Made by a program: the position numbers and the translations under genes. Under the pieces are notes generated by a model, which was not told the origin of the DNA, did no database searches, and saw only the letters and a program-made list of their open reading frames with translations. 52,838 nt of DNA from an uncultured bacterium (GTDB lineage: Bacteria; Patescibacteriota; Minisyncoccia; UBA6257; 2-01-FULL-56-20), in assembly GCA_963745135.1 (NCBI GenBank), contig CAVUWW010000013.1, positions 1-52,838 on the forward strand, read 5' to 3'. Shown here one piece after another: positions 4,366 through 34,966 of this stretch (its first letter is position 1; each line of letters starts with the position of its first letter).

Positions 4366-5451
4366 ATGCAATCTTCTTTTAATCTTTTCCGGCGCACGTT
4401 TTCCGGCTCCTGCCTCGGCGTGGACATCGGTACGACTTCCATCAAGATTGTCGAAGTGGCGGGCGGCAAGGAGAAGCCGGCGGTCCTGAACTACGGGCTT
4501 TTGGAATCGAGCGGCTATCTTGCGCGGTCGAACCAGGCGTTCCAGACGAGCAGCTTAAAAATCTTCGAGGCGGAGGTCGCGGAGCTCTTAAGGGCGCTCG
4601 CGCGGTCGGTGCGGGCCGGGACCAAGAACGCGATCGCGTCCCTGCCGGTGTTCTCGGCGTTCACGACCGTGCTCGACTTCCCGCAAATGCCGCCGCAGGA
4701 GATTGAGCAGGCGCTCATTTTCCAGGCGCGGCAGTACGTGCCGTTGCCGCTTTCGGAAGTTTCGCTCGATTGGCTGAAGGTGGGCGAGTACGAGGACGAC
4801 AAGGGTTTCGCGCACCAGAAAATATTCCTGACTTCGATTCCCAACGAGCAGATAAAAAAATACCAGAATATGTTCGCCGCAGCCGGATTGCATCTGGTCG
4901 CGCTCGAGCTCGAAAGCTTGAGTTTGGCGAGATTGTTCGGCAACGATTCCACGCCCACAATCCTCGTGGACATCGGCAGCCGCTCGACGGACATCGTGTT
5001 CCTCGAGTCCGGCAATCTCGTCTGGAACGCGCAGAGCGATTTCGGCGGCGCGTCGCTCACGCAGGCCTTGGCCTCAAGCTTGGGCGTGAACCCGCTGCGC
5101 GCGGAGGAATTGAAGAAGGAGCGCGGCATCCTTGGCACCGGCCCAAGCTATGAGTTGTCCACAATCATGCTTCCGTTCGTGGATGTTATAATAAATGAGG
5201 TGAAGAAAGCCGATTTCGCTTACCGGCAGCAGTTCCCCGCCGCGAAAAAAGCGGAGCGGGTGATGCTCGCTGGCGGCGGCGCGAACTTGCTTGGCATCGA
5301 GAAATATTTCGAGCGCGAGTTCGGCGTCCCTGCAGTGAAGGCCGCGTCCTTCGTCAGGTTCGGCTATCCGCAGGAGATGGAGCCGCTCGTCCCCGAGCTG
5401 AATCCGCTGATGAGCGTGGCACTGGGGTTGGGGATGAGGAATTTCGTGTAG
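4366..5451 (+). CDS. pilM: type IV pilus assembly ATPase-fold protein PilM
   Basis: 361 aa with an actin-like fold signature CLGVDIGTTSIKIVEV and DIGSRSTDIVF. It is the first gene of the pilus operon. Confidence 0.85.
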   Translation: MQSSFNLFRRTFSGSCLGVDIGTTSIKIVEVAGGKEKPAVLNYGLLESSGYLARSNQAFQTSSLKIFEAEVAELLRALARSVRAGTKNAIASLPVFSAFTTVLDFPQMPPQEIEQALIFQARQYVPLPLSEVSLDWLKVGEYEDDKGFAHQKIFLTSIPNEQIKKYQNMFAAAGLHLVALELESLSLARLFGNDSTPTILVDIGSRSTDIVFLESGNLVWNAQSDFGGASLTQALASSLGVNPLRAEELKKERGILGTGPSYELSTIMLPFVDVIINEVKKADFAYRQQFPAAKKAERVMLAGGGANLLGIEKYFEREFGVPAVKAASFVRFGYPQEMEPLVPELNPLMSVALGLGMRNFV

Positions 5452-5549
5452 GCATACGAATGTACGAATCGGTACGAATATACGAATAGGAAATCAAAAA
5501 AATTAATCTCCCATTCGTATATTCGTAAAAATTCGTAAATTCGTATGCC
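5451..5549. repeat. inverted array hairpin, GGCATACGAAT...ATTCGTATGCC family
   Basis: 4 TACGAAT units, a loop, then 4 ATTCGTA units. It starts at the last base of the pilM stop codon and contains the next ATG (5545) in its last 5 nt. Confidence 0.85.
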
Positions 5550-6141
5550 ACTACCGCAACAAGTCGTCGAAAAATTGAGCCGCGAGCCGATTAAGACGCC
5601 CGGATGGTCGGGCGGGGTTTTGTTCTATTCGGGCGTGCTTTTGGCCGTGGTCGTCGTCATTTACGCCGGACTTTCGTTCGTGTACGCGCCAATCCTGAAT
5701 GCGCGCATCGCGGGCGCCGAAAGCAAAATTTCCGCATTGAGCAATACGATTTCCGCGTCGGACGAGCAGCAGCTTGCCACCTATTATTCCCAGATATCGA
5801 ACCTCCGCTTGCTCATACAGAACCACATCGTCCTTTCACCGTTTTTCGCGTGGCTCGAAGGGCACACGGAAGCGAACGTCTCCTATGCCAACTTGAATTT
5901 TTCTGCGGGGAACCAGGTTGCGCTCACGGCGACCGCGCTAACGGAAGCCGACGTGAACCAGCAGGTCGCGATTTTCCAGGCGGCGCCGGAAGTGAAGATG
6001 GTGAATGTTTCCAACCTTTCGTTCGTCGCGACGAACAATATGTGGCAGTTCAGTGTGTCCCTCGTGATGCAGCCGTCAATGTTCACGTGGCAGCCGCAGG
6101 GCGGCGCGGCGACAGGATCGGCGACGTCGAGCGGGCAGTGA
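5545..6141 (+). CDS. PilN-like single-pass pilus assembly protein
   Basis: 198 aa with one N-terminal TM helix (VLFYSGVLLAVVVVIYAGL) followed by a coiled region. It sits directly after pilM. Confidence 0.55.
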   Translation: MPLPQQVVEKLSREPIKTPGWSGGVLFYSGVLLAVVVVIYAGLSFVYAPILNARIAGAESKISALSNTISASDEQQLATYYSQISNLRLLIQNHIVLSPFFAWLEGHTEANVSYANLNFSAGNQVALTATALTEADVNQQVAIFQAAPEVKMVNVSNLSFVATNNMWQFSVSLVMQPSMFTWQPQGGAATGSATSSGQ

Positions 6142-6148
6142 TGAAGAA

Positions 6149-6201
6149 GGGTCTGGGGTCTAGGGTATAGTGAACCCCAAACCCCAAACCCCAAACCCTA
6201 C
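6149..6201. repeat. inverted array hairpin, GGGTCT/GGGTAT vs ACCCCAA units
   Basis: Sequence gggtctggggtctagggtatag-tg-aaccccaaaccccaaaccccaaaccctac. It fills the gap between stop 6141 and ATG 6204. Confidence 0.8.
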
Positions 6202-6203
6202 TA

Positions 6204-6812
6204 ATGAAGCAATCTTCAAAAAGATTAATCAGTATGCTCCTCGCCCTCGTCTTTTTGGTTGCCGCGTTCATCGGTTTTTTTGACTTCATCCAGCCAGCCT
6301 ACGGCAACATCGGGAACCTGCGGGGCGAGGCGTCCGCGGAACAGCAGCTTTTGACGACGCTTACGGCGACCGTGCAGCAGGCGCAGGCACTTCTCAGCTC
6401 GTACGGCAGCCAAAGCTCGAGTACGGCGGGAATTGGCATGGTTCTGCCGGCGGGGACCGACGTGGCTGGCGCGTTGGCGCAGGTGAACGGCATTGCGACG
6501 GCCGACAATCTCACCATTACCTCGATTGCCGTTTCTACGCCGGTGCTCCAGACGCAGCCGGCCACAAGCGTTTCCTCGACTTTAGCGACCGCGAAGCCGG
6601 CGGGCGAGTTCTCGCTGAAGATCGCGGCGACGGGAAGCTATGAGAGTTTCAAAAGCTTCCTGTCGGACATTGAAACAAACATCCGGCTGTTCGACGTGGA
6701 GAGCGTTTCCCTGCAGCCGGTCGCCGCCGCCGCAGCTTCAGGGAAAAGGTCGGTGTCCGTGGACTATTTCACGTATAATATAGTGGCGCAGACGTATTAC
6801 CAGACCCCTTAA
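6204..6812 (+). CDS. PilO-like pilus assembly protein
   Basis: 202 aa with an N-terminal TM helix (LISMLLALVFLVAAFIGFF). Assigned from its position in the pil operon. Confidence 0.5.
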   Translation: MKQSSKRLISMLLALVFLVAAFIGFFDFIQPAYGNIGNLRGEASAEQQLLTTLTATVQQAQALLSSYGSQSSSTAGIGMVLPAGTDVAGALAQVNGIATADNLTITSIAVSTPVLQTQPATSVSSTLATAKPAGEFSLKIAATGSYESFKSFLSDIETNIRLFDVESVSLQPVAAAAASGKRSVSVDYFTYNIVAQTYYQTP

Positions 6813-6816
6813 AGAA

Positions 6817-6902
6817 GGGTATGGGGTATAGGGGATAGGGTATAGTGAAGAAATTCCGTACCCTATACCCTATACCCTATGCCCTATGCCCTATACCCTA
6901 CC
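6817..6902. repeat. inverted array hairpin, GGGTATR / ACCCTAT family
   Basis: Left arm gggtatggggtataggggatagggtatag, loop tgaagaaattccg, right arm (taccctat/gccctat) x6. The ATG at 6904 follows 1 nt later. Confidence 0.85.
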
Positions 6903-6903
6903 A

Positions 6904-7203
6904 ATGGCAATCATTGTCGAAGAGGAAAAAACAAGCTCGGGGATCATCAGCTTTTTGGGCTGGGCGTCCATCATCGCGATCCTCGCCGTTGCGGCGTATT
7001 ACGGGTTCCTTGCGCCCGCGCCTCTGGTGGTCGTAGCCCCTCCCGCCGATTTGAATAACTTGCTTTCCATTTCAAGCGCCGGTTTGAACGCAAACAGTAT
7101 TTTGCAGGGCGCTGAATTCCAATCGCTTGCGCAACACGTGCCGGAGCCCTCCGCCACCGGTCCTGCGGGAGTCGGGAGAACGAATCCGTTTGTGGCTCCG
7201 TAG
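6904..7203 (+). CDS. small membrane protein in the pilus operon
   Basis: Start moved to MAIIVEEEK (ATG 6904), directly after the hairpin. One TM helix (IISFLGWASIIAILAVAAYYGF). Confidence 0.5.
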   Translation: MAIIVEEEKTSSGIISFLGWASIIAILAVAAYYGFLAPAPLVVVAPPADLNNLLSISSAGLNANSILQGAEFQSLAQHVPEPSATGPAGVGRTNPFVAP

Positions 7204-7204
7204 T

Positions 7205-7293
7205 AATCGCGAATATCGCGAATGAGCGCAAATAACGCGAATAAAACAAAACCACCATTCGCATTATTTGCTTTGATTCGCGTTATTCGCGAA
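7205..7293. repeat. inverted array hairpin, CGCGAAT / ATTCGCG units
   Basis: Left arm aatcgcgaatatcgcgaatgagcgcaaataacgcgaat, right arm attcgcattatttgctttgattcgcgttattcgcgaa. The ATG at 7301 is 7 nt downstream. Confidence 0.8.
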
Positions 7294-7300
7294 CACTCCT

Positions 7301-9025
7301 ATGACCGACGACCAACTGCTTGAACAGCTCCAGCGGCAGAACCTGATCACGCCTCCTTTGGTCACGCGGCTCAAACGGGATGCTTTGATCAAGATGCGGC
7401 CGGTCGAATCGCTTATCGAGGACGAGCGCCTGGTGCCGAGCGAGAAGATCGCGGAATTGAAAAGCCAGATCATGAACGTGCCGTACCAGAAAGTGGATCC
7501 GGCGAGCGTGACCGCCGAGCTGCTCGAACTGATTCCCGAAGACACGGCGCGCACGTACGGCGTCTTGCCGCTCGCGTTGCAGGACAACCTGCTCGTGGCG
7601 GGCATGGTGCACCCGGATGATTCAAAGGCGCAGGAAGCATTGAAGTTCCTCGCGCGGCGCGGCCATTACAATCTGGGCGTGTACGTCATTTCCTTCGGCG
7701 ACTGGCAGGCGGTCTTGCGGAAATATTCGCCGTACCGCACGGAGATCGCGCGCGCGGTGCAGTCGCTGAACATCAAGGAGGGATCGGCAATGCAGAAGTC
7801 GGTGAGCCTGGAGGACGCGATGGCGGGTGATGAGGCGCCGGTCATCCGGATCGTCGCGGACACACTGAAGGAAGCGGTGTTCAGCAAGGCGTCGGATGTC
7901 CACATCGAGCCGCAGGAAAATTCCGTGCGCGTTCGGTTCCGCAACGACGGCGACCTGCACCAAGTGGCGTCGCTCCCGCCGGAGCTTGGCCAGCCGGTCA
8001 TCTCGCGGGTGAAGGTGCTCTCCCAAATGAAGATTGACGAGACGCGCACGCCGCAGGACGGCCGCTTCCGCTCGCGCATTCTTGACAAGGACATTGATTT
8101 CCGCGTCTCGACCTTCCCGACGCCGCTCGGCGAGAAAGTGGCGATCCGCGTGCTTGACCCGGCGACGGGGCTGAAGGATTTTTCGAAGTTGCCATTCCTC
8201 TTTAGAAACGCGGAAATCGTGAAGGAGGGGCTCGAGAAACCATACGGGATGATTCTGATCACGGGGCCTACCGGCTCCGGAAAAACGACGACGCTCTATG
8301 CGTTCCTCCAGCAGATGAACAAGGAGGACGTGAATATCGTCTCACTTGAGGATCCGGTGGAATATTTCGTCGCGGGCGTGAACCAGTCGCAGGTGCGGCC
8401 GGAGATCGGCTACGACTTTGCGTCGGGCTTGCGCGAGATTGTGCGGCAGGATCCGGACATCATCATGGTCGGTGAGATTCGCGACGCCGAAACCGCCGGG
8501 CTCGCCGTGCAGGCGGCCTTGACCGGCCACATCGTGCTCTCGACTTTGCATACCAACAACGCCGCCGGCGTCATCCCGCGCCTCACGGATTTAAAAGTGG
8601 AACCATTCCTACTGCCAGTGTCGTTGAATTTAATGATCGCACAGCGCTTGCTTGGCGTTTTGTGCGACAACTGCAAGGCGGCGGACGTGGCGCCGGAAAG
8701 CGTGCAGAAAATAATCAAAAGCGCGCTCGCGAACCTGCCCGAGGAAGTTACCAAGGAATTTCAGGAGCCATACAAGACCTATCATGCGAAGGGTTGCAAT
8801 GTTTGCAAGGGCAAGGGCATTCTCGGCCGGACCGCGATTTACGAGGCGTTCCACATGAGCCCGCAAATGGAGGAGCTGATTGCCGCCGGGACGCCGACAG
8901 TCCAGAAGATCATGGCGGAAGCGAAGCGGCAGGGTATGCTCACGCTGCGGCAGGACGGCGTGATTAAGGCGTTGCGGGGGATCGTGTCGATCGAGGAGGT
9001 GGCTAGGGAAACGGAGGAAGTGTAG
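7301..9025 (+). CDS. pilB: type IV pilus assembly ATPase PilB (GspE family)
   Basis: 574 aa with Walker A GPTGSGKTTT, a GspE N-terminal domain and a tetracysteine motif CDNC...CNVCKGKG. Confidence 0.9.
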   Translation: MTDDQLLEQLQRQNLITPPLVTRLKRDALIKMRPVESLIEDERLVPSEKIAELKSQIMNVPYQKVDPASVTAELLELIPEDTARTYGVLPLALQDNLLVAGMVHPDDSKAQEALKFLARRGHYNLGVYVISFGDWQAVLRKYSPYRTEIARAVQSLNIKEGSAMQKSVSLEDAMAGDEAPVIRIVADTLKEAVFSKASDVHIEPQENSVRVRFRNDGDLHQVASLPPELGQPVISRVKVLSQMKIDETRTPQDGRFRSRILDKDIDFRVSTFPTPLGEKVAIRVLDPATGLKDFSKLPFLFRNAEIVKEGLEKPYGMILITGPTGSGKTTTLYAFLQQMNKEDVNIVSLEDPVEYFVAGVNQSQVRPEIGYDFASGLREIVRQDPDIIMVGEIRDAETAGLAVQAALTGHIVLSTLHTNNAAGVIPRLTDLKVEPFLLPVSLNLMIAQRLLGVLCDNCKAADVAPESVQKIIKSALANLPEEVTKEFQEPYKTYHAKGCNVCKGKGILGRTAIYEAFHMSPQMEELIAAGTPTVQKIMAEAKRQGMLTLRQDGVIKALRGIVSIEEVARETEEV

Positions 9026-9030
9026 GTGGA

Positions 9031-9150
9031 ACCAGCTACCAGCTGCTGGCGACCAGTCACCGATACTCATGGATTTGAGTTTTCATATGATACAATAAGA
9101 GTAATAATTTTGGATTTAGCTGGTAGCTGGTAGCTGGTAGCTGGTAGCTA
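9031..9150. repeat. inverted array hairpin, CCAGCTA / TAGCTGG units with a ~60-nt loop
   Basis: Left arm accagctaccagctgctggcgaccag. Right arm is (tagctgg) x4.7. The ATG at 9160 is 9 nt downstream. Confidence 0.8.
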
Positions 9151-9159
9151 ATCTCATTC

Positions 9160-10234
9160 ATGGACGACTTCAAGCAAAAACTAAACGACCTGCTCACCGC
9201 CACGGCGCGGCAGAACGCTTCCGACCTCCACATCGCCGTCGGCAAGCGGCCGACGTTGCGTATTGACGGGGTTCTCGTGCCGCTCCAGAAGGAGCCGGTC
9301 TTGACGCCCGAGATGGCGGAGGGAATCATCGGCGCGATGATATCGCCCGAGCAGAAAGAGAGGCTTGCGAAGGACCGGCAGGTGGACTTCGCCTACAGCT
9401 TCGAGGACAAGGCGCGGTTCCGCGTGAACGCTTTCTACCAGCGGGGGTATCTGGCTGCGGCATTGCGTTTGGTTCCCGGGCGCGTGAAGGACATTGAAGA
9501 GCTGAACCTGCCGCCGCTCCTGCACGACTTTACGAAACTTTCCCAAGGTTTCATTTTGGTCGTGGGTCCGGCGGGGCATGGCAAATCCACAACGCTCGCC
9601 GCGATGATCGACGAGGTGAACCACACCCGCTCCGACCATATCATCACGATCGAGGATCCGGTGGAATATCTCTTTACGCAGGACAAGTGCATCGTCTCCC
9701 AGCGCGAGGTGGGAAGCGACACCATTGGCTTCCACGCCGCGCTCCGGACCGTCCTGCGGCAGGATCCCGACGTCATCATGATCGGCGAGATGCGCGACGC
9801 GGTCTCGATTGACACTGCGATGACGGCGGCCGAGACCGGCCACTTGGTGCTCGCAACGCTGCATACTAATTCCGCCGCGCAGACAATCGACCGAATCATT
9901 GACTCGTTCCCCGCCGAGCAACAGGGGCAATGTCACTTCGCAATTGGCGGCCACCTTGGTTGCTATAGTTTCAGAGCGGCTTTTGCCGCGCATCTCCGGC
10001 GGCCGCGTGCCTGCGCTCGAGATCATGATTGTGAACCCCGCCATCCGCAACCTGATCCGCGAGCGCAAAGTGTATCAGATTGACTTGGTGATTGAGACCA
10101 GCTTGCAGGAAGGCATGGTAACGCTGAACCGGTCGCTCGCGAATTTGGTGAAGAACAAAGAAGTGACGCTCGAGAACGCAGAGCTGTATTCATTGAATCC
10201 TGCCGAGTTGAGGATTTTGCTGGAGAGGATGTAG
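9160..10234 (+). pseudogene. pilT: twitching-motility ATPase PilT, interrupted by a +1 frame break
   Basis: ORFs 9160..10083 (Walker A GPAGHGKST) and 9899..10234 (RISGGRVPALEIMIVNPAIRNLIRE) are two halves of one PilT. Deleting one G of the GGGG run at 9924..9927 fuses them. Confidence 0.8.
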
Positions 10235-10240
10235 GAGAAA

Positions 10241-10310
10241 GTTATCAGGTTATAAAGTTATCAGGTTATCAGGTAGGAATTTAACTTTAAAAACCTGATA
10301 ACTTGATAAC
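10241..10310. repeat. inverted array hairpin, GTTATCAG / CTGATAAC units
   Basis: Left arm gttatcaggttataaagttatcaggttatcaggt, right arm acctgataacttgataac. The ATG at 10319 is 8 nt downstream. Confidence 0.8.
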
Positions 10311-10318
10311 TTTCAACC

Positions 10319-11530
10319 ATGAAGTTCAAGTATCAGGCCCGAACCAAAGAAGGGGAGCTCCAAGTCGGCATCATTGACGCCGGCTCGCGCGACGCAGCTT
10401 TGCAGATTTTGGCGGGGCACGAGCTTTACACCTTGAGCGTCGAGACGGCAACGGCGCCGCAGTGGTACGACCGGATCGGGGAATTTTTCGGCCGCGTCAG
10501 GCGCCGGGATCTCGTCATCTTTTCGCGCCAGCTTGCGACGCTCCTCGAGGCGCGCCTGCCCTTGAACAACGCCTTGCGCGTGCTCCATGAGCAGACCGTG
10601 AACGCGCGGCTCAAGGAGGGGATTTTGCAGATGTCCCAGGACATTGACGCCGGGCTTTCGTTTTCGCAGGCGCTCGAGCACCAGGGGCGCATGTTCCCTT
10701 CATATTACATGGAGATGGTGCGGGCGGCGGAGGTGACAGGGAATCTTGCCGAGATATCGGGCTTCCTCGCCGATTACACGGAGCGCGAAGGCGACCTCGC
10801 GAGCAAGGCGTCTTCGGCGATGATCTATCCGGGCATCGTCCTTGGGCTTTTTCTCGTCGTCGGTTTCATCCTGCTCACATTCGTCTTTCCGCAGATTAAG
10901 CCGGTCTTCGACCAGAGCGGCGTGACGTTGCCGTGGTACACCGCGTTTTTCTTGGGGGCGGGCACTTTCATGCAGCAATGGTGGCCGGCGATAATTGTGG
11001 CGGCGTTCGTGCTTGGGGTTGTTGTCTTTGATTATTTCCGCACGCCCGAAGGCATTGCGCTGTTCGACGACCTGAAGATCCGCCTGCCGGTTTTGCAGAA
11101 AGTTTTTTTGCCGCTCCTCATGGCGCGGTTCGGGAATTCGGCGGAGCTTCTGATCCATGGCGGCGTCCCGCTCGCGCAAGCGCTCGAGATCATCAGCCAC
11201 ATGATGGGGAATGTCTTGTACGAGGACGTGGTGCACCAGGTTGCGGAGGACGTGCGGCAGGGGAAATTGCTATCGGAAAGTTTGGCGGACTACCCGCGCT
11301 ATTTCCCGATCATGGTGCCGCAGATGGTGTCGGTCGGCGAGACGACAGGAAAGATTGAGGAGATGTTTGGGCGTCTTTCGAAGATCTATACGCGCGAGGC
11401 AAACCAGACGATGGACAACCTGGTGGACCTCATCCAACCCATTCTCATGATTGGCATGGGCGCGATGGTGGGACTTTTGTTCGCATCAATTCTCGTGCCG
11501 CTCTACCAGCTGACGGCGAGCATACATTAA
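10319..11530 (+). CDS. pilC: type IV pilus platform protein PilC (T2SS F family)
   Basis: 403 aa with duplicated T2SSF-type domains and three hydrophobic segments. Confidence 0.9.
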   Translation: MKFKYQARTKEGELQVGIIDAGSRDAALQILAGHELYTLSVETATAPQWYDRIGEFFGRVRRRDLVIFSRQLATLLEARLPLNNALRVLHEQTVNARLKEGILQMSQDIDAGLSFSQALEHQGRMFPSYYMEMVRAAEVTGNLAEISGFLADYTEREGDLASKASSAMIYPGIVLGLFLVVGFILLTFVFPQIKPVFDQSGVTLPWYTAFFLGAGTFMQQWWPAIIVAAFVLGVVVFDYFRTPEGIALFDDLKIRLPVLQKVFLPLLMARFGNSAELLIHGGVPLAQALEIISHMMGNVLYEDVVHQVAEDVRQGKLLSESLADYPRYFPIMVPQMVSVGETTGKIEEMFGRLSKIYTREANQTMDNLVDLIQPILMIGMGAMVGLLFASILVPLYQLTASIH

Positions 11531-11534
11531 AGAA

Positions 11535-11747
11535 GGGTATGGGGGATAGGGTATAGGGTGAAGAGAAGAAAGAAGAATTTGCCCTGTGGATAACAAGAGA
11601 AGTTACGCGGTTTGACAATGATATACTTAAATAAATATCAAAAAGGTCGAGAAAGTTACTGAAAAATCAGATTAAAAAAAGAAAAGGGCTAGGAATTTTG
11701 GGCTTGGATTGAATATCTATACCCTATACCCTATACCCTATACCCTA
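11535..11747. repeat. GGGTATR / ACCCTAT inverted arrays separated by a ~155-nt A/T-rich spacer
   Basis: Left arm 11535..11560 and right arm 11717..11747, which is (ctatacc) x4. The pilin ATG at 11748 abuts the right arm. Confidence 0.75.
11612..11641 (+). promoter_or_regulatory. possible pilin promoter (TTGACA, 17-18 nt spacer, ATATCA/TATCAA)
   Basis: Perfect -35 TTGACA at 11612..11617 inside the spacer of the split hairpin. The -10 box is weak. Confidence 0.3.
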
Positions 11748-12242
11748 ATGCGAAATGGATTTACTTTGATTGAAATTCTCATCGTGGTCGCGATCATCGC
11801 CATTTTGGCGTCAGTCGTGCTCATCGGCCTTGGCCCAACCCAGCAGTCCGGCCGAGACGCGCGGCGGCTTTCCGACCTCCATGAGGTGCAGAACGCCATC
11901 GAGCTGTACTACCAGAAGTGCGGTTTCTATCCGGGCAGCGTAAGCGGTTCTGGTCCCACTGCAACTTGCGTTTCGCTTAACAGCCAAACCTATACTGGCA
12001 TGAGCGCTGCGATTTTGAGCGCCGGCATCGGCATCACGTCTCCCTTGCCGCTTGATCCGACGAACAATGCCACGTATTATTATTTCTACGGGACGAACGG
12101 CGCCACCTATATCCTCGGCGCGACGCTCGAAAACACGAATAACGCGGTGTTCAGCGGTTACCAAAACCCCCTGCCGACTTCGAACGTAACCATGCCCGGC
12201 GGGCAAAACTGCAACAGTCCTGAATATTGCATGTCATTGTAG
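11748..12242 (+). CDS. type IV pilin (prepilin with class III signal peptide)
   Basis: Start moved to MRNG/FTLIEILIVVAIIAILA, the canonical prepilin cleavage/methylation motif. Confidence 0.9.
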   Translation: MRNGFTLIEILIVVAIIAILASVVLIGLGPTQQSGRDARRLSDLHEVQNAIELYYQKCGFYPGSVSGSGPTATCVSLNSQTYTGMSAAILSAGIGITSPLPLDPTNNATYYYFYGTNGATYILGATLENTNNAVFSGYQNPLPTSNVTMPGGQNCNSPEYCMSL

Positions 12243-12271
12243 GATCAGCAGTTCGTTCGCTTCGGTTCCAA

Positions 12272-12295
12272 AGCCGGCAGAGATGCCGGTTTTTG
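12272..12295 (+). terminator. intrinsic terminator after the pilin gene
   Basis: Stem agccggc / gccggtt, loop agagat, then a T-run. Confidence 0.6.
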
Positions 12296-12303
12296 GTTGG
12301 ATT

Positions 12304-12394
12304 TTACGAAAGTACGAATACAGTACGAAAATACGAATATCCATCACAGTGCAGGTTATTCGTATTTTCGTAAATAATTCGTAATTTCGTAAAC
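12304..12394. repeat. inverted array hairpin, TACGAAW / WTTCGTA units
   Basis: Left arm ttacgaaagtacgaatacagtacgaaaatacgaatat, right arm ttattcgtattttcgtaaataattcgtaatttcgtaaa. Confidence 0.8.
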
Positions 12395-12398
12395 TAGG

Positions 12399-12404
12399 TA
12401 TAAT
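12399..12404 (+). promoter_or_regulatory. -10 box TATAAT, 6 nt before ATG 12411 (leaderless pilD candidate)
   Basis: Sequence ggTATAATaaaacaATG. Confidence 0.5.
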
Positions 12405-12410
12405 AAAACA

Positions 12411-13274
12411 ATGCCTTACGTCCTGCTCTTTGCGCTTGGTCTCTGCATCGGCAGCTTTTTGAACGTTGTCGCGCTGCGCTACGACGGCGAGCATTTTGTG
12501 TTCGACCCGAAAGTGATAGGCGGAAGATCCCATTGCCCGAAATGCGATCGCACGCTCCGTTGGTTTGAGTTGATTCCGATCGTGAGTTTCATCATCCAGC
12601 GCGCCAAATGCCGCGCTTGCCAAGCGCGCATCGGTTTGCGATATCCGGCTGTCGAGCTTTTGACCAGCTTGTTGTTTGTGGCGGTTCCGTGGCGCTTGGC
12701 GCAGCTTCCAGCTTCCAGCTTCCAGCTTCCAGTCGACATTCTTTGGATTGTTGCGTTTCTTATTCTCCTTCTTATCGCCTATATCGACATCCGGCTTGGC
12801 ATCATTCCGGATGAACTTGAAATAATGCTCGGCGTTTGCGCTTTTGGTATTGTTTTGATTTCTTCCCTAGCTGCTAGCTACTCGCCCCTCGCCCCTAATT
12901 TCTCCTTTCTCGGCGCTTTCGCGCCGATTTTCGGCTTCCAGCAAAACGTCTGGACTGCACGCATCATTGGCATGATTTTCGCTTTCGCGTTCTTTGAGTT
13001 GCTCGTGCTCGTGACGCGCGGCCGCGGCATGGGCGTGGGCGACGTGAAGCTCGCCCTGCCGCTCGGATTTCTTTTCGGCTGGCCGGATATTTTGATCGCC
13101 ATCATGTCCGCTTTCGTAGTTGGCGCCGCAGTCGGGGTTGTGAGCATCGCGGTCAAGTGGAAAAAAATGGGCGGCAATCTGCCTTTTGGGCCGTTTTTGG
13201 CTGCCGGCGCGGCGTTCGTCTTCTTTTTCGGGCTGCCGGTGGCGCAGTGGTATTTTCATTTGATGGGGATGTGA
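12411..13274 (+). CDS. pilD: prepilin peptidase PilD (A24 family)
   Basis: 287 aa with N-terminal CPKC..CRAC and catalytic Asp contexts GMGVGDVKL and LPFGPFL. Confidence 0.9.
   Translation: MPYVLLFALGLCIGSFLNVVALRYDGEHFVFDPKVIGGRSHCPKCDRTLRWFELIPIVSFIIQRAKCRACQARIGLRYPAVELLTSLLFVAVPWRLAQLPASSFQLPVDILWIVAFLILLLIAYIDIRLGIIPDELEIMLGVCAFGIVLISSLAASYSPLAPNFSFLGAFAPIFGFQQNVWTARIIGMIFAFAFFELLVLVTRGRGMGVGDVKLALPLGFLFGWPDILIAIMSAFVVGAAVGVVSIAVKWKKMGGNLPFGPFLAAGAAFVFFFGLPVAQWYFHLMGM
12703..12732 (+). repeat. intragenic tandem heptamer AGCTTCC x4.3 inside pilD
   Basis: Sequence agcttcc agcttcc agcttcc agcttcc ag, encoding QLPASSFQLP in the linker between the two PilD domains. Confidence 0.9.
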
Positions 13275-13280
13275 AGAAAT

Positions 13281-13374
13281 TTTCAGTTTTCAATTTCCAA
13301 TGGATGTTTCAGCGATGCAATGATGCAAACTTGAAACATTGGCTCATTGCTTCATCTATTGGAAATTGGAAATT
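13281..13374. repeat. nested inverted repeat (AATTTCCAAT / ATTGGAAATT units)
   Basis: Outer arms ttttcaatttccaatgg and tattggaaattggaaatt. Inner arms atgtttca and tgaaacat. Confidence 0.7.
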
Positions 13375-13394
13375 AATCCGTGGCTACCAAATCG

Positions 13395-13403
13395 TGCTAT
13401 GAT
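13395..13403 (+). promoter_or_regulatory. extended -10 box TGcTATGAT
   Basis: gTGcTATGAT is identical to the box at 23152. AAAGGA follows, and the ATG at 13416 is 12 nt downstream. Confidence 0.45.
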
Positions 13404-13415
13404 TAAAGGAAATCC

Positions 13416-13982
13416 ATGAAAAAGGGATTTACCTTGGTCGAAATGCTCATCGTGCTTGCCATTTCCGCGCTCCTTGCGGGCATCGCCTTGAGCTATAACA
13501 GCGCGAGCCGGAAAGAGATTGCGCTCTCGGTGGAGGCGGCAAAGATCTCCCAATTCATCCTGCAGGCGGAATCGCTCTCCATTGCGACCTACGGCGCCAA
13601 TTCCGCGACCCTTGTGTGCGGGTATGGGATGGTCTTCAACGCCGCAGCGCAGACCTACGGTATTTTCGAATACCAGCCGGCTGGCGCGACGACGTGCAGC
13701 GGCGTTGCTTTGCCTCTCGCTTCCATCGCCGCCGGGGAGATGCAACAATACACGCCGGGGACGTGGAACATCCACGTGGCTCCGGAGGTGCGCCTCGTGA
13801 GCGCCTCGACGGACAGCATAGCAGTCGTCCTCTTCTATCCGCCGGCGCCGACGACTTACATCAGCCGCGACGGAAGCAATTTCCTTTCCCCGACCGTGAC
13901 CTCAAAAATTTACCTCACGACGGCGGACGGCAGCGATGCGAGGACGATCAGCGTGAATTCGGAGGGGCAGGTGAGTTTTTGA
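13416..13982 (+). CDS. minor pilin (prepilin-type N-terminal cleavage/methylation domain)
   Basis: N-terminus MKKG/FTLVEMLIVLAISALLAG. Confidence 0.85.
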   Translation: MKKGFTLVEMLIVLAISALLAGIALSYNSASRKEIALSVEAAKISQFILQAESLSIATYGANSATLVCGYGMVFNAAAQTYGIFEYQPAGATTCSGVALPLASIAAGEMQQYTPGTWNIHVAPEVRLVSASTDSIAVVLFYPPAPTTYISRDGSNFLSPTVTSKIYLTTADGSDARTISVNSEGQVSF

Positions 13983-13989
13983 ATTTGAA

Positions 13990-14062
13990 GGGTATAGGGT
14001 ATGGGGTATAGGGTATAGTGAAACCCTAGACCCTAGACCCTAGACCCTAGACCCTAGACCCT
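13990..14062. repeat. inverted array hairpin, GGGTATR x4 / ACCCTAG x6
   Basis: Sequence gggtatagggtatggggtatagggtatag-tg-aaaccctag(accctag)x4 accct. The ATG at 14063 abuts the right arm. Confidence 0.9.
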
Positions 14063-14605
14063 ATGCAAAGTCAATCCTCACAATCCGGGCAATCGTTGAT
14101 CGAGGCCATGATTGCCATCAGTTTGCTCACCGTCGGTTTCATCGGCATCGCGGCGTTGCTCTCGCAGTCGCTCTATCTCACGCGCGTCATTTCCGACCAG
14201 ACGACGGCGACCTATCTTGCGTCCGAAGGCATTGAGCTTGCGAAGAACCTGATTGATCATGACGTGTATATGCACCTTGCGGGATTGGGAACCGGTTGGG
14301 GAACTTGCTTCAATATCAGCAATCCCGGGACGACCGAGATCGAGCTTGATTACACCTCGCTTGATTGCAGCAAGGCCTATTTCGCCGGAGATTTTTTGCA
14401 GTTCGATCCGGTGACCGGACTTTATGGCTACAGCTCTGATCTGCCGGCTGCGGACAATCCCATCCCGACCAAGTTCACGCGTGAGATTGACATTAATTTG
14501 CAGGGCAACGAGATTACCGTGAATTCCAAAGTCAGGTGGAACACCGGCGCGTTCACGTCGCAGAGCGTCAATCTGGAAGATCATTTTTACAATTGGAGGC
14601 AGTAA
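14063..14605 (+). CDS. pilin-like protein (PilV-like minor pilin)
   Basis: N-terminus MQSQSSQSGQSLIEAMIAISLLTVGFIG, a prepilin-type hydrophobic N-terminus. Confidence 0.75.
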   Translation: MQSQSSQSGQSLIEAMIAISLLTVGFIGIAALLSQSLYLTRVISDQTTATYLASEGIELAKNLIDHDVYMHLAGLGTGWGTCFNISNPGTTEIELDYTSLDCSKAYFAGDFLQFDPVTGLYGYSSDLPAADNPIPTKFTREIDINLQGNEITVNSKVRWNTGAFTSQSVNLEDHFYNWRQ

Positions 14606-14612
14606 TTTTTAA

Positions 14613-14671
14613 GGGTATGGGGTATAGGGTATAGTGAAACCCTAAACCCTAAACCCTAAACCCTAAACCCT
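14613..14671. repeat. inverted array hairpin, GGGTATR x3 / ACCCTAA x5
   Basis: Sequence gggtatggggtatagggtatag-tg-aaaccctaa(accctaa)x3 accct. The ATG at 14672 abuts the right arm. Confidence 0.9.
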
Positions 14672-15277
14672 ATGCAACGCCAATCTCCACAATCCGGCCA
14701 GTCCCTCATCGAGCTTCTCGTCGCCATCGGCCTCTTCTCTATCCTCTTTGCCATTGCGGGCGGGGGATTCGTGAACGCGCTCCATGCCCAGAACCAGGTT
14801 TCGGCGGAGATGGCGGCGGAAAGCAACGTCGGCATCGCGATTGAGGAGATGGCGCGGGAGATGCGGACCGGCTACCTTTTCTGCCACGATTTGAACGGCG
14901 TTTCAACGTGCGACACGAGCGATCCCTCGTACAATCGCCACTGCACATTCGATGCGGCAACCCAACTGCTCACCTGCTCCGACCTTGAATATTACGACGC
15001 GAACGGCGAGAAAATCGATTACGTCCTGAAGGGCGGCGTCCTGGAACGCGGAGACAACGATGCGTACCAGCCGATCACGGGGGATAATGTGACCGTGCGC
15101 TCGCTCTCATTCGTCCTTCACGGCAATACGGAAGGCGACCATTGGAACCCGCGGATCACCGTCACGATCGGCATTGCGCCGAACAATTCGGGCGTCTCAT
15201 GGAACACGGTTGACTTCCAGACCACGGTGAGCGCAAGGGAGATTGATTGCACGGCGGGAGCGAGCCCGAGCTGCTGA
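14672..15277 (+). CDS. pilin-like protein (PilW-like minor pilin)
   Basis: N-terminus MQRQSPQSGQSLIELLVAIGLFSILFAI. Confidence 0.75.
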   Translation: MQRQSPQSGQSLIELLVAIGLFSILFAIAGGGFVNALHAQNQVSAEMAAESNVGIAIEEMAREMRTGYLFCHDLNGVSTCDTSDPSYNRHCTFDAATQLLTCSDLEYYDANGEKIDYVLKGGVLERGDNDAYQPITGDNVTVRSLSFVLHGNTEGDHWNPRITVTIGIAPNNSGVSWNTVDFQTTVSAREIDCTAGASPSC

Positions 15278-15363
15278 AATCCTTAATCCTTAATCGTTAA
15301 TCCTTGACTAAAAATTTCGATTCCCTAGCGTTGTAATTGTTTAAGGATTAAAGATTAAGGATT
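15278..15363. repeat. inverted array hairpin, CCTTAAT / ATTAAGG units, between convergent genes
   Basis: Left arm aatccttaatccttaatcgttaatcctt, right arm aaggattaaagattaaggatt. It exactly fills the gap between stop 15277 and stop 15366. Confidence 0.8.
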
Positions 15364-15365
15364 GT

Positions 15366-16597: not shown

Positions 16598-16812
16598 CTA
16601 TTTTATCCACCGGAAACATTTGACTCGCCGCCTTTGGTTTGCTAACCTAAAAGCAGTAGGCATCCCACCCCGTGCGCGGGGAATCAGGCGACTGCCATTC
16701 ACTCCAGCGGCGATTCGGCGATTTTTCGGAGAAAACGCCTATGATTGTGCTTACGTCCCACGTTCAGGTAAACGGCGCGCCTTAGCGACGAAGAAACAAG
16801 CGCTTCGGCTTA

Positions 16813-18314: not shown

Positions 18315-18358
18315 GGTGCAGAACTCTTAACCCCAGACCCTAAACCCCAGACCCTAAA
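18307..18358. repeat. inverted array hairpin, GGGCATAGGGTG / ACCCYAR units
   Basis: The loop gcagaactctt is shared with the element at 30484. The left arm overlaps the parA stop and the right arm abuts the parB ATG at 18359. Confidence 0.75.
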
Positions 18359-19414
18359 ATGCTAGGAAAAGGTTTGGAATCATTGATTCCCCAAAAAAGC
18401 GGCGGCAACGGCGACAATAACGACAGTCATGACGACGGGCAGATTTCCGTGCCGCAAGACGTGAATTCAAGTCTGGCGCCTGTGGATGAGCCGGAGGACA
18501 TGGGTCTCGGGTCTAGGGTCTCGGGTCTAGGGGAAGAGAAAAAATCAGAAACCCTAAACCCAAGACCCCAGACCCTAAACCCTAAGCCCGAACAAATTTT
18601 CGGTTCGATATTCCAGATTGAAGTTGACAAGATCTCGCCGAACCCGGACCAGCCGCGGCGGCATTTCGACGAGACGGCTTTGCACGACCTTGCGCGTTCC
18701 ATCCGCGAGTTCGGTTTTCTCCAGCCGCTCGTAGTCTCGAAAATCGAAAAGGAATCGCCGACGGGCATTGACGTCGAATACCAGCTCATCGCCGGCGAAC
18801 GGCGTTTGCTTGCGGCGAAATTGCTTGGCTTGCGGCTCGTGCCTGCCATTATCAGGAACGTCCATCTCGAGCGTGAAAAATTGGAGCTTGCCGTCATCGA
18901 GAACATCCAGCGCGAGGACTTGAATCCCATCGAGACCGCGCACGCGTTCCAGCGGCTGCAGGAAGAGTTTCGCATGACCCAGCGCGAGATTGCGGCGAAG
19001 CTCGGCAAGTCGCGGGAAGTTGTCGCGAATACCGTGCGGCTGCTCGACCTGCCGGAATATATCCAGGAGGCGGTCCAGAAAGGGGATCTGTCCGAAAGCC
19101 ATGCGCGCTTGCTGCTTTCGATCGGCGATCCGGGCGCGCAGAAAAGGTTGTTCGACGACATTTCCCTGAACCGCCTCACGACGCGCGATGTGAAGGAGCG
19201 CGTGAAGCAGATTGCAAAGCCACGCGAGCCGCGCGAAGGAGCGGAAATCTCGCCGGAGCTGAAAGCCATGCAGGAGTCATTGAGTTCAGCCCTCGGTGCG
19301 CCGGTCGAGATCCATAAAGGAGCGAACACCGGAAAGATCACGATTGTATTTTATTCGCAGGAAGAGCTGGAGAACATTTTGCAGAAATTGAAAAGCGGGG
19401 AGGGAAATCAATAA
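18359..19414 (+). CDS. parB: chromosome partitioning protein ParB/Spo0J
   Basis: 351 aa with N-terminal GKGLESLIP, ParB box ISPNPDQPRRHFDE and LIAGERRLLAAK. It carries an in-frame repeat-element insert. Confidence 0.9.
   Translation: MLGKGLESLIPQKSGGNGDNNDSHDDGQISVPQDVNSSLAPVDEPEDMGLGSRVSGLGEEKKSETLNPRPQTLNPKPEQIFGSIFQIEVDKISPNPDQPRRHFDETALHDLARSIREFGFLQPLVVSKIEKESPTGIDVEYQLIAGERRLLAAKLLGLRLVPAIIRNVHLEREKLELAVIENIQREDLNPIETAHAFQRLQEEFRMTQREIAAKLGKSREVVANTVRLLDLPEYIQEAVQKGDLSESHARLLLSIGDPGAQKRLFDDISLNRLTTRDVKERVKQIAKPREPREGAEISPELKAMQESLSSALGAPVEIHKGANTGKITIVFYSQEELENILQKLKSGEGNQ
18502..18589. repeat. GGGTCTM / ACCCTAA-type hairpin element inserted in frame inside parB
   Basis: Left arm gggtctcgggtctagggtctcgggtctagggg, loop, right arm aaaccctaaacccaagaccccagaccctaaaccctaagccc. 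Translated as GLGSRVSGLGEEKKSETLNPRPQTLNPKP. Confidence 0.85.
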
Positions 19415-25722: not shown

Positions 25723-25811
25723 GGCATACGAATGTACGAATTTTTACGAATATACGGACGGGAAACTCAATCTCTTATTCGTATATTCGTACCGATTCGT
25801 AAATTCGCATG
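25723..25811. repeat. GGCATACGAAT...ATTCG hairpin element (near-identical to 27513..27600)
   Basis: Shares both arms and the loop gggaaaYtcaatctc with the copy at 27513. The ATG at 25809 lies in the last arm unit (attcgcATG). Confidence 0.85.
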
Positions 25812-27116: not shown

Positions 27117-27512
27117 GTGAACCATCGCCACGGTCAAGCATTCCTTTCCGTCGTCCTGCTCATCGGCACCATCGTGATAGTCGTCGGGACAACCATTGCC
27201 TTCGTCACTGTGGCTTTCATTGATAGCAGCTACGGCACGCAGGCATTGCAGGGCGCCGAAGCCACGGCGATGGCGGGCATCAAGGACGCGCAATTGCGCC
27301 TGGCCAGGGGCGACCTTACAAGCGGCGGTGTCTACGCTCTTCCGACCATCGCTGGATCGGCAGCCGTCACGGTCACGCCGCCGAGCGCCGGCCTCGCGAC
27401 GGTCCTTTCCATTGCCACCGTCAACTTCCGCACACGGAAGATCCAAGCCGTGTTTTCAATTGACCCCACGACGGGGAAAGTGACGGAAGTGTCGCAGGTG
27501 GAAATTCAATGA
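27117..27512 (+). CDS. PilX-like pilus-associated protein (GTG start)
   Basis: 131 aa with an N-terminal hydrophobic helix GQAFLSVVLLIGTIVIVVGTTIAFV, then QALQGAEATAMAGIKDA, as in the PilX N-terminal domain. Confidence 0.5.
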   Translation: MNHRHGQAFLSVVLLIGTIVIVVGTTIAFVTVAFIDSSYGTQALQGAEATAMAGIKDAQLRLARGDLTSGGVYALPTIAGSAAVTVTPPSAGLATVLSIATVNFRTRKIQAVFSIDPTTGKVTEVSQVEIQ

Positions 27513-27600
27513 GGCATACGAATGTACGAATAGTTACGAATATACGAATGGGAAATTCAATCTCTTATTCGTATATTCGTACCGATTCGTAAATTCGTAA
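27513..27600. repeat. GGCATACGAAT...ATTCGTAA hairpin element
   Basis: Near-identical to 25723..25811. It starts 1 nt after stop 27512, and ATG 27609 is 8 nt downstream. Confidence 0.85.
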
Positions 27601-27608
27601 CCCTACCA

Positions 27609-29794: not shown

Positions 29795-29806
29795 TGTGGT
29801 AAGTGG

Positions 29807-29929
29807 GGCATACGAATTTACGAATCGGTACGAATATACTAATAAGATTAGTAGCGGAACCATTCCAAACATTCGTGTACCCATTCTGAATTATTCGTAT
29901 ATTCGTACAAATTCGTACATTCGTATGCC
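29807..29929. repeat. GGCATACGAAT...ATTCGTATGCC hairpin element (long-loop copy)
   Basis: Same termini as 5451..5549. The lepB ATG at 29925 lies inside the terminal ATTCGTATGCC. Confidence 0.85.
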
Positions 29930-30479
29930 CATGCGCAAATTCCTCGCCTCGCTCCTCGAAGTCCTGGAAATCGCGGCAATCGCCGTCGCCGCCGTCTTCA
30001 TCGTGCGCACGTTTCTTGTCCAGCCGTTCTTGGTCAGCGGCACGAGCATGTATCCCACTTTTTCGAACGGCGATTACGTTTTGGTTGACGAGCTGACCTA
30101 CCGCATCCGGCCGCCGGAGCGCGGCGAGGTCATCGTATTCCACGATCCCGAGGATTATTCCACGTATTTCATCAAACGCATCATCGGCCTGCCGGGCGAG
30201 AAAGTGGTTTTGCATAACAGCACCGTCACGGTCTATAACAGCGCGAACCCGAACGGCCTCGTGCTTGACGAATCGTATCTGCCGCCGGGGACGGTTACTT
30301 CGGGAGACCAGACCTACGTGCTTTCTTCAAGCACGTACTTGATGTTCGGCGACAACCGGCCGTTCAGCTACGATTCGCGCAGCTGGGGGCCGCTGCCGAC
30401 GAAGAACATCGTCGGCCTCGTGCGCGTCCGCCTGTGGCCGGTGACCGCGATCACCGCGTTCGCCGCGCCGAAGTATTGA
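29925..30479 (+). CDS. lepB: signal peptidase I
   Basis: Start moved to MPMRKF. Contains the catalytic Ser box SGTSMYPTF, the KRIIGLPGE Lys box and GDNRPFSYDSR. Confidence 0.9.
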   Translation: MPMRKFLASLLEVLEIAAIAVAAVFIVRTFLVQPFLVSGTSMYPTFSNGDYVLVDELTYRIRPPERGEVIVFHDPEDYSTYFIKRIIGLPGEKVVLHNSTVTVYNSANPNGLVLDESYLPPGTVTSGDQTYVLSSSTYLMFGDNRPFSYDSRSWGPLPTKNIVGLVRVRLWPVTAITAFAAPKY

Positions 30480-30483
30480 AGAA

Positions 30484-30560
30484 GGGTATAGGGTTTCGGG
30501 TATAGGGTATAGGGTGCGGAACTCTTGACCCTAGACCCTAGACCCTTGACCCTAGACCCT
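30484..30560. repeat. inverted array hairpin, GGGTATA / ACCCTAG family
   Basis: Left arm gggtatagggtttcgggtatagggtatagggtg, loop cggaactctt, right arm gaccctagaccctagacccttgaccctagaccct. The ATG at 30565 follows 4 nt later. Confidence 0.85.
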
Positions 30561-34889: not shown

Positions 34890-34899
34890 ATTGTTAGAA

Positions 34900-34966
34900 G
34901 GGTATAGGGTCTAGGGTATGGGGTATAGGATACCCTAAACCCTAAACCCTAAACCCTAAACCCTAA
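34900..34966. repeat. inverted array hairpin, GGGTATR x4 / ACCCTAA x5
   Basis: Sequence gggtatagggtctagggtatggggtatagg-a-taccctaa(accctaa)x4. The secF ATG at 34967 abuts the right arm. Confidence 0.9.

Follow-up and report, generated by a model that had tools for sequence, protein, structure and literature searches.

Imperfect palindromes present in high copy number at gene boundaries within operons include the REP/BIME elements of E. coli and Pseudomonas and the Correia, RUP/BOX and Rickettsia RPE elements. Among these, REPs are 20-40 nt long, lack a tandem structure, bear a GTAG/CGTC tag and owe their mobility to RAYT transposases; known effects of REP-type elements are stabilisation of mRNA 3' ends and attenuation of read-through. 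Heptameric simple sequence repeats (SSR) are another kind of boundary repeat. In Xanthomonas and Nostoc, arrays of about four GGGNATC or GGGGAYT units, of unknown function, lie between co-directional open reading frames (ORFs), the G-rich strand being placed no more than 50 bp downstream of the stop codon and the C-rich strand ahead of the next ORF; they recur at the same junctions in close relatives with extensive changes in sequence and length, and inverted copies capable of forming stem-loops have been noted (Rehm et al. 2015, PMC4692102). Direct TAACTGA repeats, known from cyanobacteria, marine Beggiatoaceae and some Bacteroidetes, end 0-1 nt short of start codons devoid of a ribosome-binding site, differ between strains by indels in 7-nt steps and rely on a single unit common to distant lineages, with inverted partners in 1 of 170 sets (MacGregor 2015, PMC4679880). 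Here we analyse a type IV pilus gene cluster located at positions 4366-15277 of a 52,838-nt contig from an uncultured bacterium (CAVUWW010000013.1; the window, that is, the whole stretch of DNA analysed), the gaps of which are filled with hairpins whose arms are mostly arrays of 7-nt units. We consider it probable that these hairpins represent dispersed, fast-turnover palindromic families, similar to REPs and heptameric SSRs, which punctuate transcripts rather than stand in for Shine-Dalgarno (SD) sequences.

PilB homologues place the host in the Patescibacteria/Paceibacterota. Pfam matches identified the genes of the cluster, in order, as pilM, a pilN-like gene, pilO, a small ORF of 99 aa, pilB, pilT, pilC, the major pilin gene (pilA), pilD, which encodes the prepilin peptidase, and three N_methyl minor pilin genes (m1, m2 and m3), the last of which is followed by the convergent gene tsaD. 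Start codons were anchored by N-termini conserved across 4-7 relatives. A first-pass annotation of this DNA had proposed an inverted repeat in every gap of the cluster and a further one at its end, and repeat detection bore out the coordinates, with inverted repeats or tandem arrays starting at 5451, 6148, 6816, 7202, 9031, 10241, 11534, 12303, 13287, 13989, 14612 and 15278. Folding against dinucleotide shuffles, a check suggested by that annotation, revealed that all 11 internal gaps and the terminal gap are more stable than shuffled sequence, with z-scores between -3.1 and -9.0 (in order, -7.9, -3.1, -6.3, -9.0, -6.2, -7.4, -6.3, -6.4, -7.4, -5.4, -3.4 and -7.1), minimum free energies (MFE) of -24 to -69 kcal/mol and stems of 15-47 bp. 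Tandem Repeats Finder further uncovered arrays of period 7, in some cases 8, with 3.3-6.0 copies in both arms of most gaps. The 3' arrays on the ATG side are usually perfect (100%), versus 78-91% for the 5' arms, and usually have more units, the two arms being often mismatched at one base per unit (GGGTATA versus GGGTCTA, GGGTTTA or GGGGTTT).

These elements sit tightly between stop and start codons. Eight of the 11 gaps have their stop at -2 to 6 nt relative to the 5' foot of the stem, in line with the earlier claim that stop and start meet at the stem base. In the MFE folds, the stem or array ends 0-4 nt short of the ATGs at 5545, 6204, 6904, 7301, 10319 and 11748, 10 nt before those at 9160 and 12411, and 42 nt before that at 13416; at 14063 and 14672 it is the repeat array that runs up to the ATG, the stem stopping 7 nt short of it. 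The distance to the 3' stem foot is thus 0-10 nt at 10 of 11 starts. In read-through RNA, positions -20 to -1 of the internal genes would be mostly paired, with a mean unpaired probability of 0.28 versus 0.41 in other genes. Folding showed no bias towards the sense strand, antisense folds being equally or more stable. No T-run follows the repeat hairpins, which thus lack the combination of GC stem and U-tract of an intrinsic terminator, and a scan for terminators of the canonical type yielded no enrichment over shuffles. Only three tRNAs in the window reached the gathering threshold in Rfam 15, and no family fitted the hairpins, which scored below threshold against eukaryotic miRNA-precursor models, generic hairpins themselves.

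Hairpins are enriched in the pilus cluster but not unique to it: all 11 pilus junctions carry one, compared with about 8 of the 26 remaining co-directional ones (Fisher p = 1.3e-4). Indeed, they belong to dispersed repeat families and are not devices specific to the pilus operon. The TACGAAT family has five copies in 52.8 kb (5451, 12303, 25723, 27512 and 29806), at least ~80% alike across ~95 nt, bases outside the units included; the units are conserved and the spacers between them are not complementary across the arms. The GGGTAT/ACCCTA family counts seven to eight copies in the window, with common loops, four of seven of which contain TATAGT, and a common 5' end, AGAAGGGTAT. Its G-rich arm is 5' in all eight copies, starting 3-12 nt past the stop in the six intergenic stop-to-start copies, and six of the eight 5' arms hold a G-quadruplex motif (at least four G-tracts), which the 3' arrays carry on the opposite strand. 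Because a palindrome is the same on both strands, the orientation of the G-rich arm relative to genes was dropped as evidence, and only the asymmetry between arms was regarded as informative. Further unit families are likewise placed (CGCGAAT, AGCTGGT, GTTATCAG, TTAAGGA, ACGGATT, TGCGAAT and TAGCCAC). Elements were found in co-directional, divergent (27512, 29806) and convergent (15278) gaps, and in-frame hairpins or arrays also occur within coding sequence, namely in parB (18502-18589), pilD (12702-12732) and tsaD (15660-15727 and 16116-16267). Perfect arrays of 4-6 units adjoin the ATGs of pilO, the small ORF, pilA, m2 and m3, and such arrays also precede the housekeeping genes secF, hisS, parB, tsaD and relA.

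Compared with the described systems, the locus shows three hallmarks of heptameric SSRs and of the short tandemly repeated repetitive (STRR) sequences of cyanobacteria: at least three head-to-tail 7-nt units, a co-directional intergenic location with the G-rich array after the stop, and rapid change among relatives. Unlike in Xanthomonas and Nostoc, however, nearly every array here pairs with an inverted partner into a hairpin (-24 to -69 kcal/mol), many families of unrelated units occur side by side, hairpins saturate an entire pilus cluster, and the host is a reduced, SD-less member of the Patescibacteria. The TAACTGA repeats differ in turn, since the arrays of the window are palindrome arms and their units are diverse. 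The likeness to REP/BIME, Correia, RUP/BOX and RPE elements lies in the high-copy imperfect palindromes at gene boundaries (five TACGAAT and about eight GGGTAT copies) and, for RPE, in the in-frame insertions into parB, tsaD and pilD. The GTAG/CGTC foot of REPs is missing, as window copies begin with GGCATACG or AGAAGGGTAT, and the ...CGTAG end seen in other contigs belongs to the repeat unit. The elements belong among known repeat classes and, according to our searches of the literature on the Candidate Phyla Radiation (CPR), had not been described before in this clade; those searches returned nothing specific on CPR hairpins or on the TACGAAT motif. Two other candidates were dismissed: integron attC sites, given the gene order conserved in seven genomes and the lack of a GTTRRRY core on inspection by eye, no pattern search having been run, and DNA-uptake sequences, given the many unrelated units and, again, the conserved gene order.

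Six related loci, identified by their PilB identity (L001, 90%; L007 and L002, 81%; L003, 75%; L008, 72%; L009, 71%), allowed the comparison of orthologous gaps that the first-pass annotation had called for. It supported the recurrence of hairpin positions, which are often kept, but not that of their sequences, which are replaced, and some junctions proved to be hairpin-free. Gene order is conserved across all seven genomes. L001 and L007 carry hairpins at nearly all the same junctions as the window, built from unrelated units (CTAATTA, GCGACAT, GGCGAGR and GTATAAG), and pilT DNA is 86% identical between the window and L001 despite the change of hairpin unit. The pilB-pilT gap is structured in all seven genomes, with a different sequence each time. 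The pilN-pilO and pilO-small ORF junctions of L002 and L003 consist of an overlap, 3 nt or 20 nt, pilN-pilO being an overlap or a gap of 3 nt, and the minor-pilin junctions of L008 and L009 are an overlap or 17-44 nt of unstructured DNA, still without SD. Strict heptamer arrays amount to 2.8-9.8 per 10 kb in the window, L001 and L007, and to 0-0.5 in the other relatives. In these comparisons, junction position is often conserved and hairpin sequence never, several hairpins are recent gains, and the hairpins are dispensable, the same cistrons being found in relatives without hairpin and without SD at four junctions. An initial impression that L001 lacks hairpins at m1-m2 and m2-m3 was withdrawn, for its automated gene calls run the minor-pilin ORFs through GCGACAT-type hairpins (16633-16760, 17273-17420 and 16000-16080). 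GCGACAT arrays contain ATG and no stop, hence the spurious N-terminal extensions that hide the hairpins.

Statistics on translation signals, compiled over the window genome and these six relatives, revealed SD-like 4-mers at positions -18 to -5 in 10 of 164 genes and 5-mers in 4 of 164. The SD is thus absent from ~94% of genes, those of the tightly packed ribosomal-protein operon of L003 included, and its loss is a trait of the whole clade that is independent of hairpins. G content is 13-19% at -20 to -1, versus 26-29% genome-wide. In line with the first-pass annotation, which had noticed this for the last 10 nt, the 20 nt before the internal pilus ATGs hold no SD-like motif in 10 of 11 cases, the exception being AAGGA before 13416. 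The AAGGAGG that it had reported at the target gene of a diversity-generating retroelement (DGR) is also real; placed 7 nt before ATG 22362 and in frame with ORF 22362-23063, it is the only strong SD of the window.

The same gene set uncovered a different start signal. A TANNNT box lies exactly 6 nt before 28 of 161 starts, versus a background of ~3 per position (p ~1e-9), and 18 of 31 matches to the extended -10 box (TGNTANNNT) have this 6-nt spacing (p ~1e-11); a -10 box at such a fixed distance is the signature of leaderless mRNA. Both pilC (TGATAACTT-N6-ATG, built from the 3' units of the hairpin) and pilD (TATAAT-N6-ATG) match this signature. Extended -10 boxes of pilT and pilA lie within hairpin loops, so that their main transcripts would carry the 3' arm only, and that of the first minor pilin gene follows its hairpin. 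In the relatives the N6 box is common at pilB, pilT, pilD and m1. At five junctions, those tight or coupled in relatives (pilM-pilN, pilN-pilO, pilO-small ORF, m1-m2 and m2-m3), no -10 box has leaderless spacing. Extended -10 boxes are four-fold enriched in intergenic DNA, and a scan for canonical sigma-70 -35/-10 promoters gave no enrichment over shuffles; the promoter evidence therefore rests on the spacing statistics of -10 and extended -10 boxes. With internal boxes at pilC, pilD, pilT, pilA and m1, the cluster, which had been taken for a single 11-gene operon, would rather be a string of separately promoted genes. The pilA-pilD hairpin may be transcribed only by read-through, since it lies between the terminator at 12270-12296 and the -10 box of pilD.

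The region upstream of the major pilin gene was found to be conserved (window 11570-11660, L001 14280-14330, L007 5785-5830, L008 14201-14263). It contains CTGTGGATAAC in the window, L001 and L007, then an extended -10 box (TGATATACT or TGCTACAAT), and AAAGGTCGA in the window, L001 and L007, and probably comprises the pilin promoter and a site for a regulator. The elements of the window and their associated signals are collected in Table 1.

Table 1. Hairpin elements and associated signals in the window.
Element	Location	Position	Strand	Support	Remarks
TACGAAT-family palindrome	pilM-pilN gap	5451..5549	+	z -7.85, -40.4 kcal/mol; aligned with 4 other copies	5' end overlaps pilM TAG stop; pilN ATG within 3' terminal GTATGCC
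GGGTCT / CCCCAAA hairpin (GGGTAT family)	pilN-pilO gap	6145..6202	+	z -3.07	loop with TATAGTGAA
GGGTAT / CCCTAT hairpin	pilO-small ORF gap	6816..6899	+	z -6.26, -52.3 kcal/mol	5' arm is a four-tract G-quadruplex motif
CGCGAAT / ATTCGCG hairpin	small ORF-pilB gap	7202..7297	+	z -8.95	
ACCAGCT / (TAGCTGG)x4.7 hairpin	pilB-pilT gap	9025..9149	+	z -6.17	extended -10 box TGATACAAT in loop, 9088-9096
GTTATCAG / CTGATAAC hairpin	pilT-pilC gap	10238..10318	+	z -7.43	3' arm makes TGATAACTT (10304-10312), exactly 6 nt from pilC ATG
GGGTAT (11534-11564) / (CTATACC)x4.4 (11716-11746) long-range pairing	pilC-pilA gap	11534..11746	+		conserved promoter region of the pilin gene in 151-nt loop, with CTGTGGATAAC and, at 11619-11627, extended -10 box TGATATACT
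Canonical intrinsic terminator (GC stem + T5)	after major pilin gene	12270..12296	+	sequence, fold	upstream of repeat hairpin; like arrangement in L001 and L008
TACGAAT-family hairpin	between pilin terminator and pilD TATAAT box	12303..12393	+		TATAAT box at 12399-12404, 6 nt from ATG 12411
TTTCCAAT / ATTGGAAA hairpin	pilD-minor pilin 1 gap	13286..13373	+	z -7.4	followed by extended -10 box TGCTATGAT (13395-13403), then AAGGA
GGGTAT / (ACCCTAG)x5.9 hairpin	minor pilin 1-2 gap	13989..14063	+	z -5.38	perfect 3' array reaches ATG
GGGTAT / (AAACCCT)x5.1 hairpin	minor pilin 2-3 gap	14612..14672	+	z -3.35	perfect 3' array reaches ATG
AATCCTT / AAGGATT hairpin	convergent gap, last minor pilin/tsaD	15278..15364	.	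z -7.13	
GGGTCT / AAACCCT hairpin	in frame within parB	18502..18589	+		in linker between N-terminal MLGKGLESLIP motif and ParB_N domain; single array 18329-18358 adjoins parB ATG
TACGAAT-family copy	tRNA-binding-domain gene-FKBP gene gap	25723..25811	+		ATG 25809 within 3' end
TACGAAT-family copy	divergent gap	27512..27604	.		4 nt before ATG 27609
TACGAAT-family copy	divergent genes pth (-) / lepB (+)	29806..29930	.		fills entire divergent gap; both start codons in terminal GGGCAT / ATGCCC
GGGTAT-family hairpin	lepB-hisS gap	30483..30560	+		
GGGTAT / (ACCCTAA)x5.1 hairpin	secD-secF gap	34899..34967	+		array adjoins secF ATG 34967

The TACGAAT hairpins extend far beyond this locus. An exact-match scan of metagenome contigs with TACGAATATACGAAT returned, among the matches listed, 19 full TACGAAT-array hairpins in at least 17 other contigs of 33-61% GC (contigs L010-L129; for example L090:3292-3354, L081:8532-8609, L062:1558-1627 and L101:866-996). 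Most listed copies occupy stop-hairpin-start junctions, usually 2-12 nt downstream of the stop and 5-24 nt upstream of the start; pilT-pilC (in two cases), infA-rpmJ and the upstream region of rpsQ are among them. PilC N-termini encoded on those contigs closely match that of the window. As in the window, the units are conserved and the spacers between units are not complementary between the arms, and a single polarity (TACGAAT...ATTCGTA) was observed in 21 of 21 tabulated copies. Such conservation may leave room for a sequence-specific factor or for a horizontally spreading element.

To account for these observations, we favour as probable a scenario in which repeat families would have invaded the gene boundaries of this Paceibacterota lineage, along with some linkers within coding sequence, in a clade that would start translation without SD by two routes, namely leaderless mRNAs with a -10 box 6 nt upstream, or G-poor, weakly structured leaders. 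We infer that arrays grow in 7-nt steps by replication slippage, which would explain why the ATG-side array is usually perfect and longer than its partner, and that copies spread or replace each other through transposition-like insertion or gene conversion. In a compact genome, only insertions that fit exactly between stop and start would survive, hence the presence of both codons at the stem feet; on this account, the geometry is the outcome of a 60-130 nt palindrome being tolerated only when it fits a 3-20 nt gap exactly. Once transcribed, an element would become a stem-loop of -24 to -69 kcal/mol that marks the end of the upstream message, as 3'-end protector or read-through barrier, and that occludes positions -20 to -1 of the next gene. 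Expression of the genes that follow would then depend chiefly on promoters of their own, located within or past the element, or on coupling, and the polarity, with a G-rich arm following the stop and a G-poor one preceding the ATG, would be what SD-independent initiation tolerates. In short, the elements probably protect 3' ends or hinder read-through between genes that are expressed separately; a role as RNA processing or stability elements, which the first-pass annotation had mentioned as its alternative, is plausible.

Several observations weigh against this scenario. Pilus junctions nearly saturated with hairpins in three genomes, with different sequences, suggest selection for their presence and not mere tolerance, and the pilB-pilT gap structured in all seven genomes points in the same direction. 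A TACGAAT unit kept at 33-61% GC, with non-complementary spacers, resembles a motif recognised by a trans-acting factor more than a product of slippage, and slippage alone hardly explains it, because the unit is conserved across such different genomes and always in one polarity. A convincing target-site duplication was found at one junction only (ATGAAG, pilN-pilO), and neither a transposase nor a RAYT was detected among ~49 window ORFs scanned with Pfam.

The first-pass annotation had itself interpreted the hairpins differently: by bringing the upstream stop next to the downstream AUG, they would let a terminating ribosome re-initiate or be shunted across the stem, in replacement of the SD. 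The codons at the stem feet (stop at -2 to 6 nt in 8 of 11 gaps, start at 0-10 nt in 10 of 11) agree with this, the pairing of positions -20 to -1 (0.28 versus 0.41 unpaired) would hinder de novo entry of the 30S subunit, and at the five tight or coupled junctions, where no -10 box has leaderless spacing, coupling across the stem is physically possible. The same geometry is, however, expected anyway from insertion into a 3-20 nt gap, the sense strand is not favoured in fold stability, and SD loss extends over the clade regardless of hairpins. Since relatives translate the same cistrons, with neither hairpin nor SD, after gaps of at most 44 nt, since pilC, pilD, pilT, pilA and m1 have their own -10 boxes, and since elements also occur without an upstream cistron, in divergent gaps, as well as in convergent gaps and coding sequences, the hairpins do not explain the missing SDs; as the reason for that loss reinitiation is unsupported, and overall we regard it as decidedly unlikely. 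The proposed parallel with phage T4 gene 38 holds insofar as a hairpin between an upstream element and the AUG brings distant sequence near the start, but fails on the defining feature, a genuine SD 5' of the hairpin, which is lacking at the 5' foot in 10 of 11 gaps: GGAG precedes the stem, by 6 nt, only at pilT-pilC (TAGGAGAAAG), and the GGGTAT feet offer at best AAGGG, half buried. Dedicated RNA punctuation fares somewhat better, though we still hold it to be rather unlikely. Here an RNase III-type enzyme or a sequence-specific factor would cleave or bind the stems and so release monocistronic messages, protected at the 3' end and with a short 5' leader or none. Phage T7 provides the precedent, its intercistronic RNase III sites being long imperfect hairpins between cistrons, like those described here, whose cleavage leaves each monocistronic mRNA with a stem-loop at its 3' end. 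Several features would suit such a role: the stems present at nearly every junction, 15-47 bp long and interrupted at regular intervals by internal mismatches, the preference of the clade for 5'-terminal AUGs, the position kept with replaced sequence in the window, L001 and L007 (and at pilB-pilT and pilT-pilC in seven or more genomes), and the TACGAAT motif, conserved in at least 17 contigs whose GC content differs widely and located for the most part at stop-hairpin-start junctions. Unlike the T7 sites, the elements are nonetheless chromosomal, repeat-built and variably present; every arm unit carries a mismatch, antisense folds are equally stable, orthologous junctions of relatives dispense with them, in-frame copies interrupt coding sequence, and at least one hairpin, between a terminator and a promoter, may hardly be transcribed.

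An extension of both ideas, a Patescibacteria operon-punctuation system in which a dedicated factor would read heptamer-array hairpins such as TACGAAT, processing the RNA or passing ribosomes across the stem and so letting internal cistrons be expressed without SD, is in our view likewise rather unlikely. A function at the DNA level is very unlikely, be it as protein-binding arrays, as cruciforms or G-quadruplexes, or as portable promoter modules (TATAGT in GGGTAT loops, TGATAACTT in the pilT-pilC arm) that would insulate adjacent genes and drive their expression. Conserved units with non-complementary spacers are what arrays of protein sites would look like, and the single polarity of the 21 tabulated TACGAAT copies fits as well, but the many unrelated units within one genome argue against a single binding protein. 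Similarly, extended -10 boxes do occur in loops and arms, with their four-fold intergenic enrichment, and the pth/lepB element spans its divergent gap, which places both promoters within the element or in coding DNA; the canonical -35/-10 scan showed no enrichment, however, and TATAGT is present in just four of seven GGGTAT-family loops. The G-quadruplex motifs of six out of eight 5' arms in the GGGTAT family, together with those that the 3' arrays carry on the other strand, also speak for this function. Phase variation, by which slippage in the perfect arrays of 4-6 units that adjoin the pilO, small ORF, pilA, m2 and m3 start codons would toggle pilus gene expression, is extremely improbable: pilus genes are classic phase-variable loci, but like arrays precede the housekeeping genes secF, hisS, parB, tsaD and relA, the arrays are intergenic, where 7-nt steps cause no frame shift, and the comparable Xanthomonas and Nostoc repeats were judged unlikely phase-variation loci (PMC4692102).

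Some further features of the window deserve mention. A purine tract (AGAAG or AACGAAG) stands right after many stops (window 6142, 6813, 11531, 13275 and 30480, and gaps of L001, L007, L008 and L009); it recurs with different repeat families and in different genomes, hairpin-free gaps included, and is too distant from the ATG for an SD role. A second palindromic family, not built from arrays (TGTCATCCCGGG...CCCGGGATGACA and kin), sits at other gene ends in the window (~19830-19870, 31887-31960 and 51113-51190) and in one relative (L002, ~12880-12950). The pilT gene (9160-10234) carries a +1 frameshift near 9929, with one A more than pilT of L001; both halves are otherwise conserved and the usual C-terminus, ...LNPAELRILLERM*, is found in the second frame, so that either a pseudogene or an assembly error is involved. 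The DGR cassette at 22362-25244 comprises the target ORF (22362-23063), a long inverted repeat (23184-23218 / 23443-23477), a 134-aa ORF (23479-23883) without Pfam match, Avd-like solely by its position before the reverse transcriptase, and the reverse transcriptase gene itself (24189-25244).

In the tiny, gene-dense genomes of Patescibacteria (CPR), ~20% of intergenic DNA in repeat hairpins is unexpected. For this poorly studied clade, the analysis provides testable facts, namely the near-total loss of SDs along with a sharp TGnTAnnnT-N6-ATG signature, which would mark leaderless mRNAs, a conserved pilus 'operon' that would really be a string of separately promoted genes, and fast-evolving heptamer-array hairpins at gene boundaries, of which the TACGAAT type is common to many uncultured lineages. 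It also carries a practical warning, as gene callers extend ORFs through these elements, for example in the minor pilins of L001. The leaderless N6 signature and the widespread TACGAAT hairpins are both worth following; if it is true that a dedicated factor reads TACGAAT arrays, these would represent a new layer of bacterial gene organisation.

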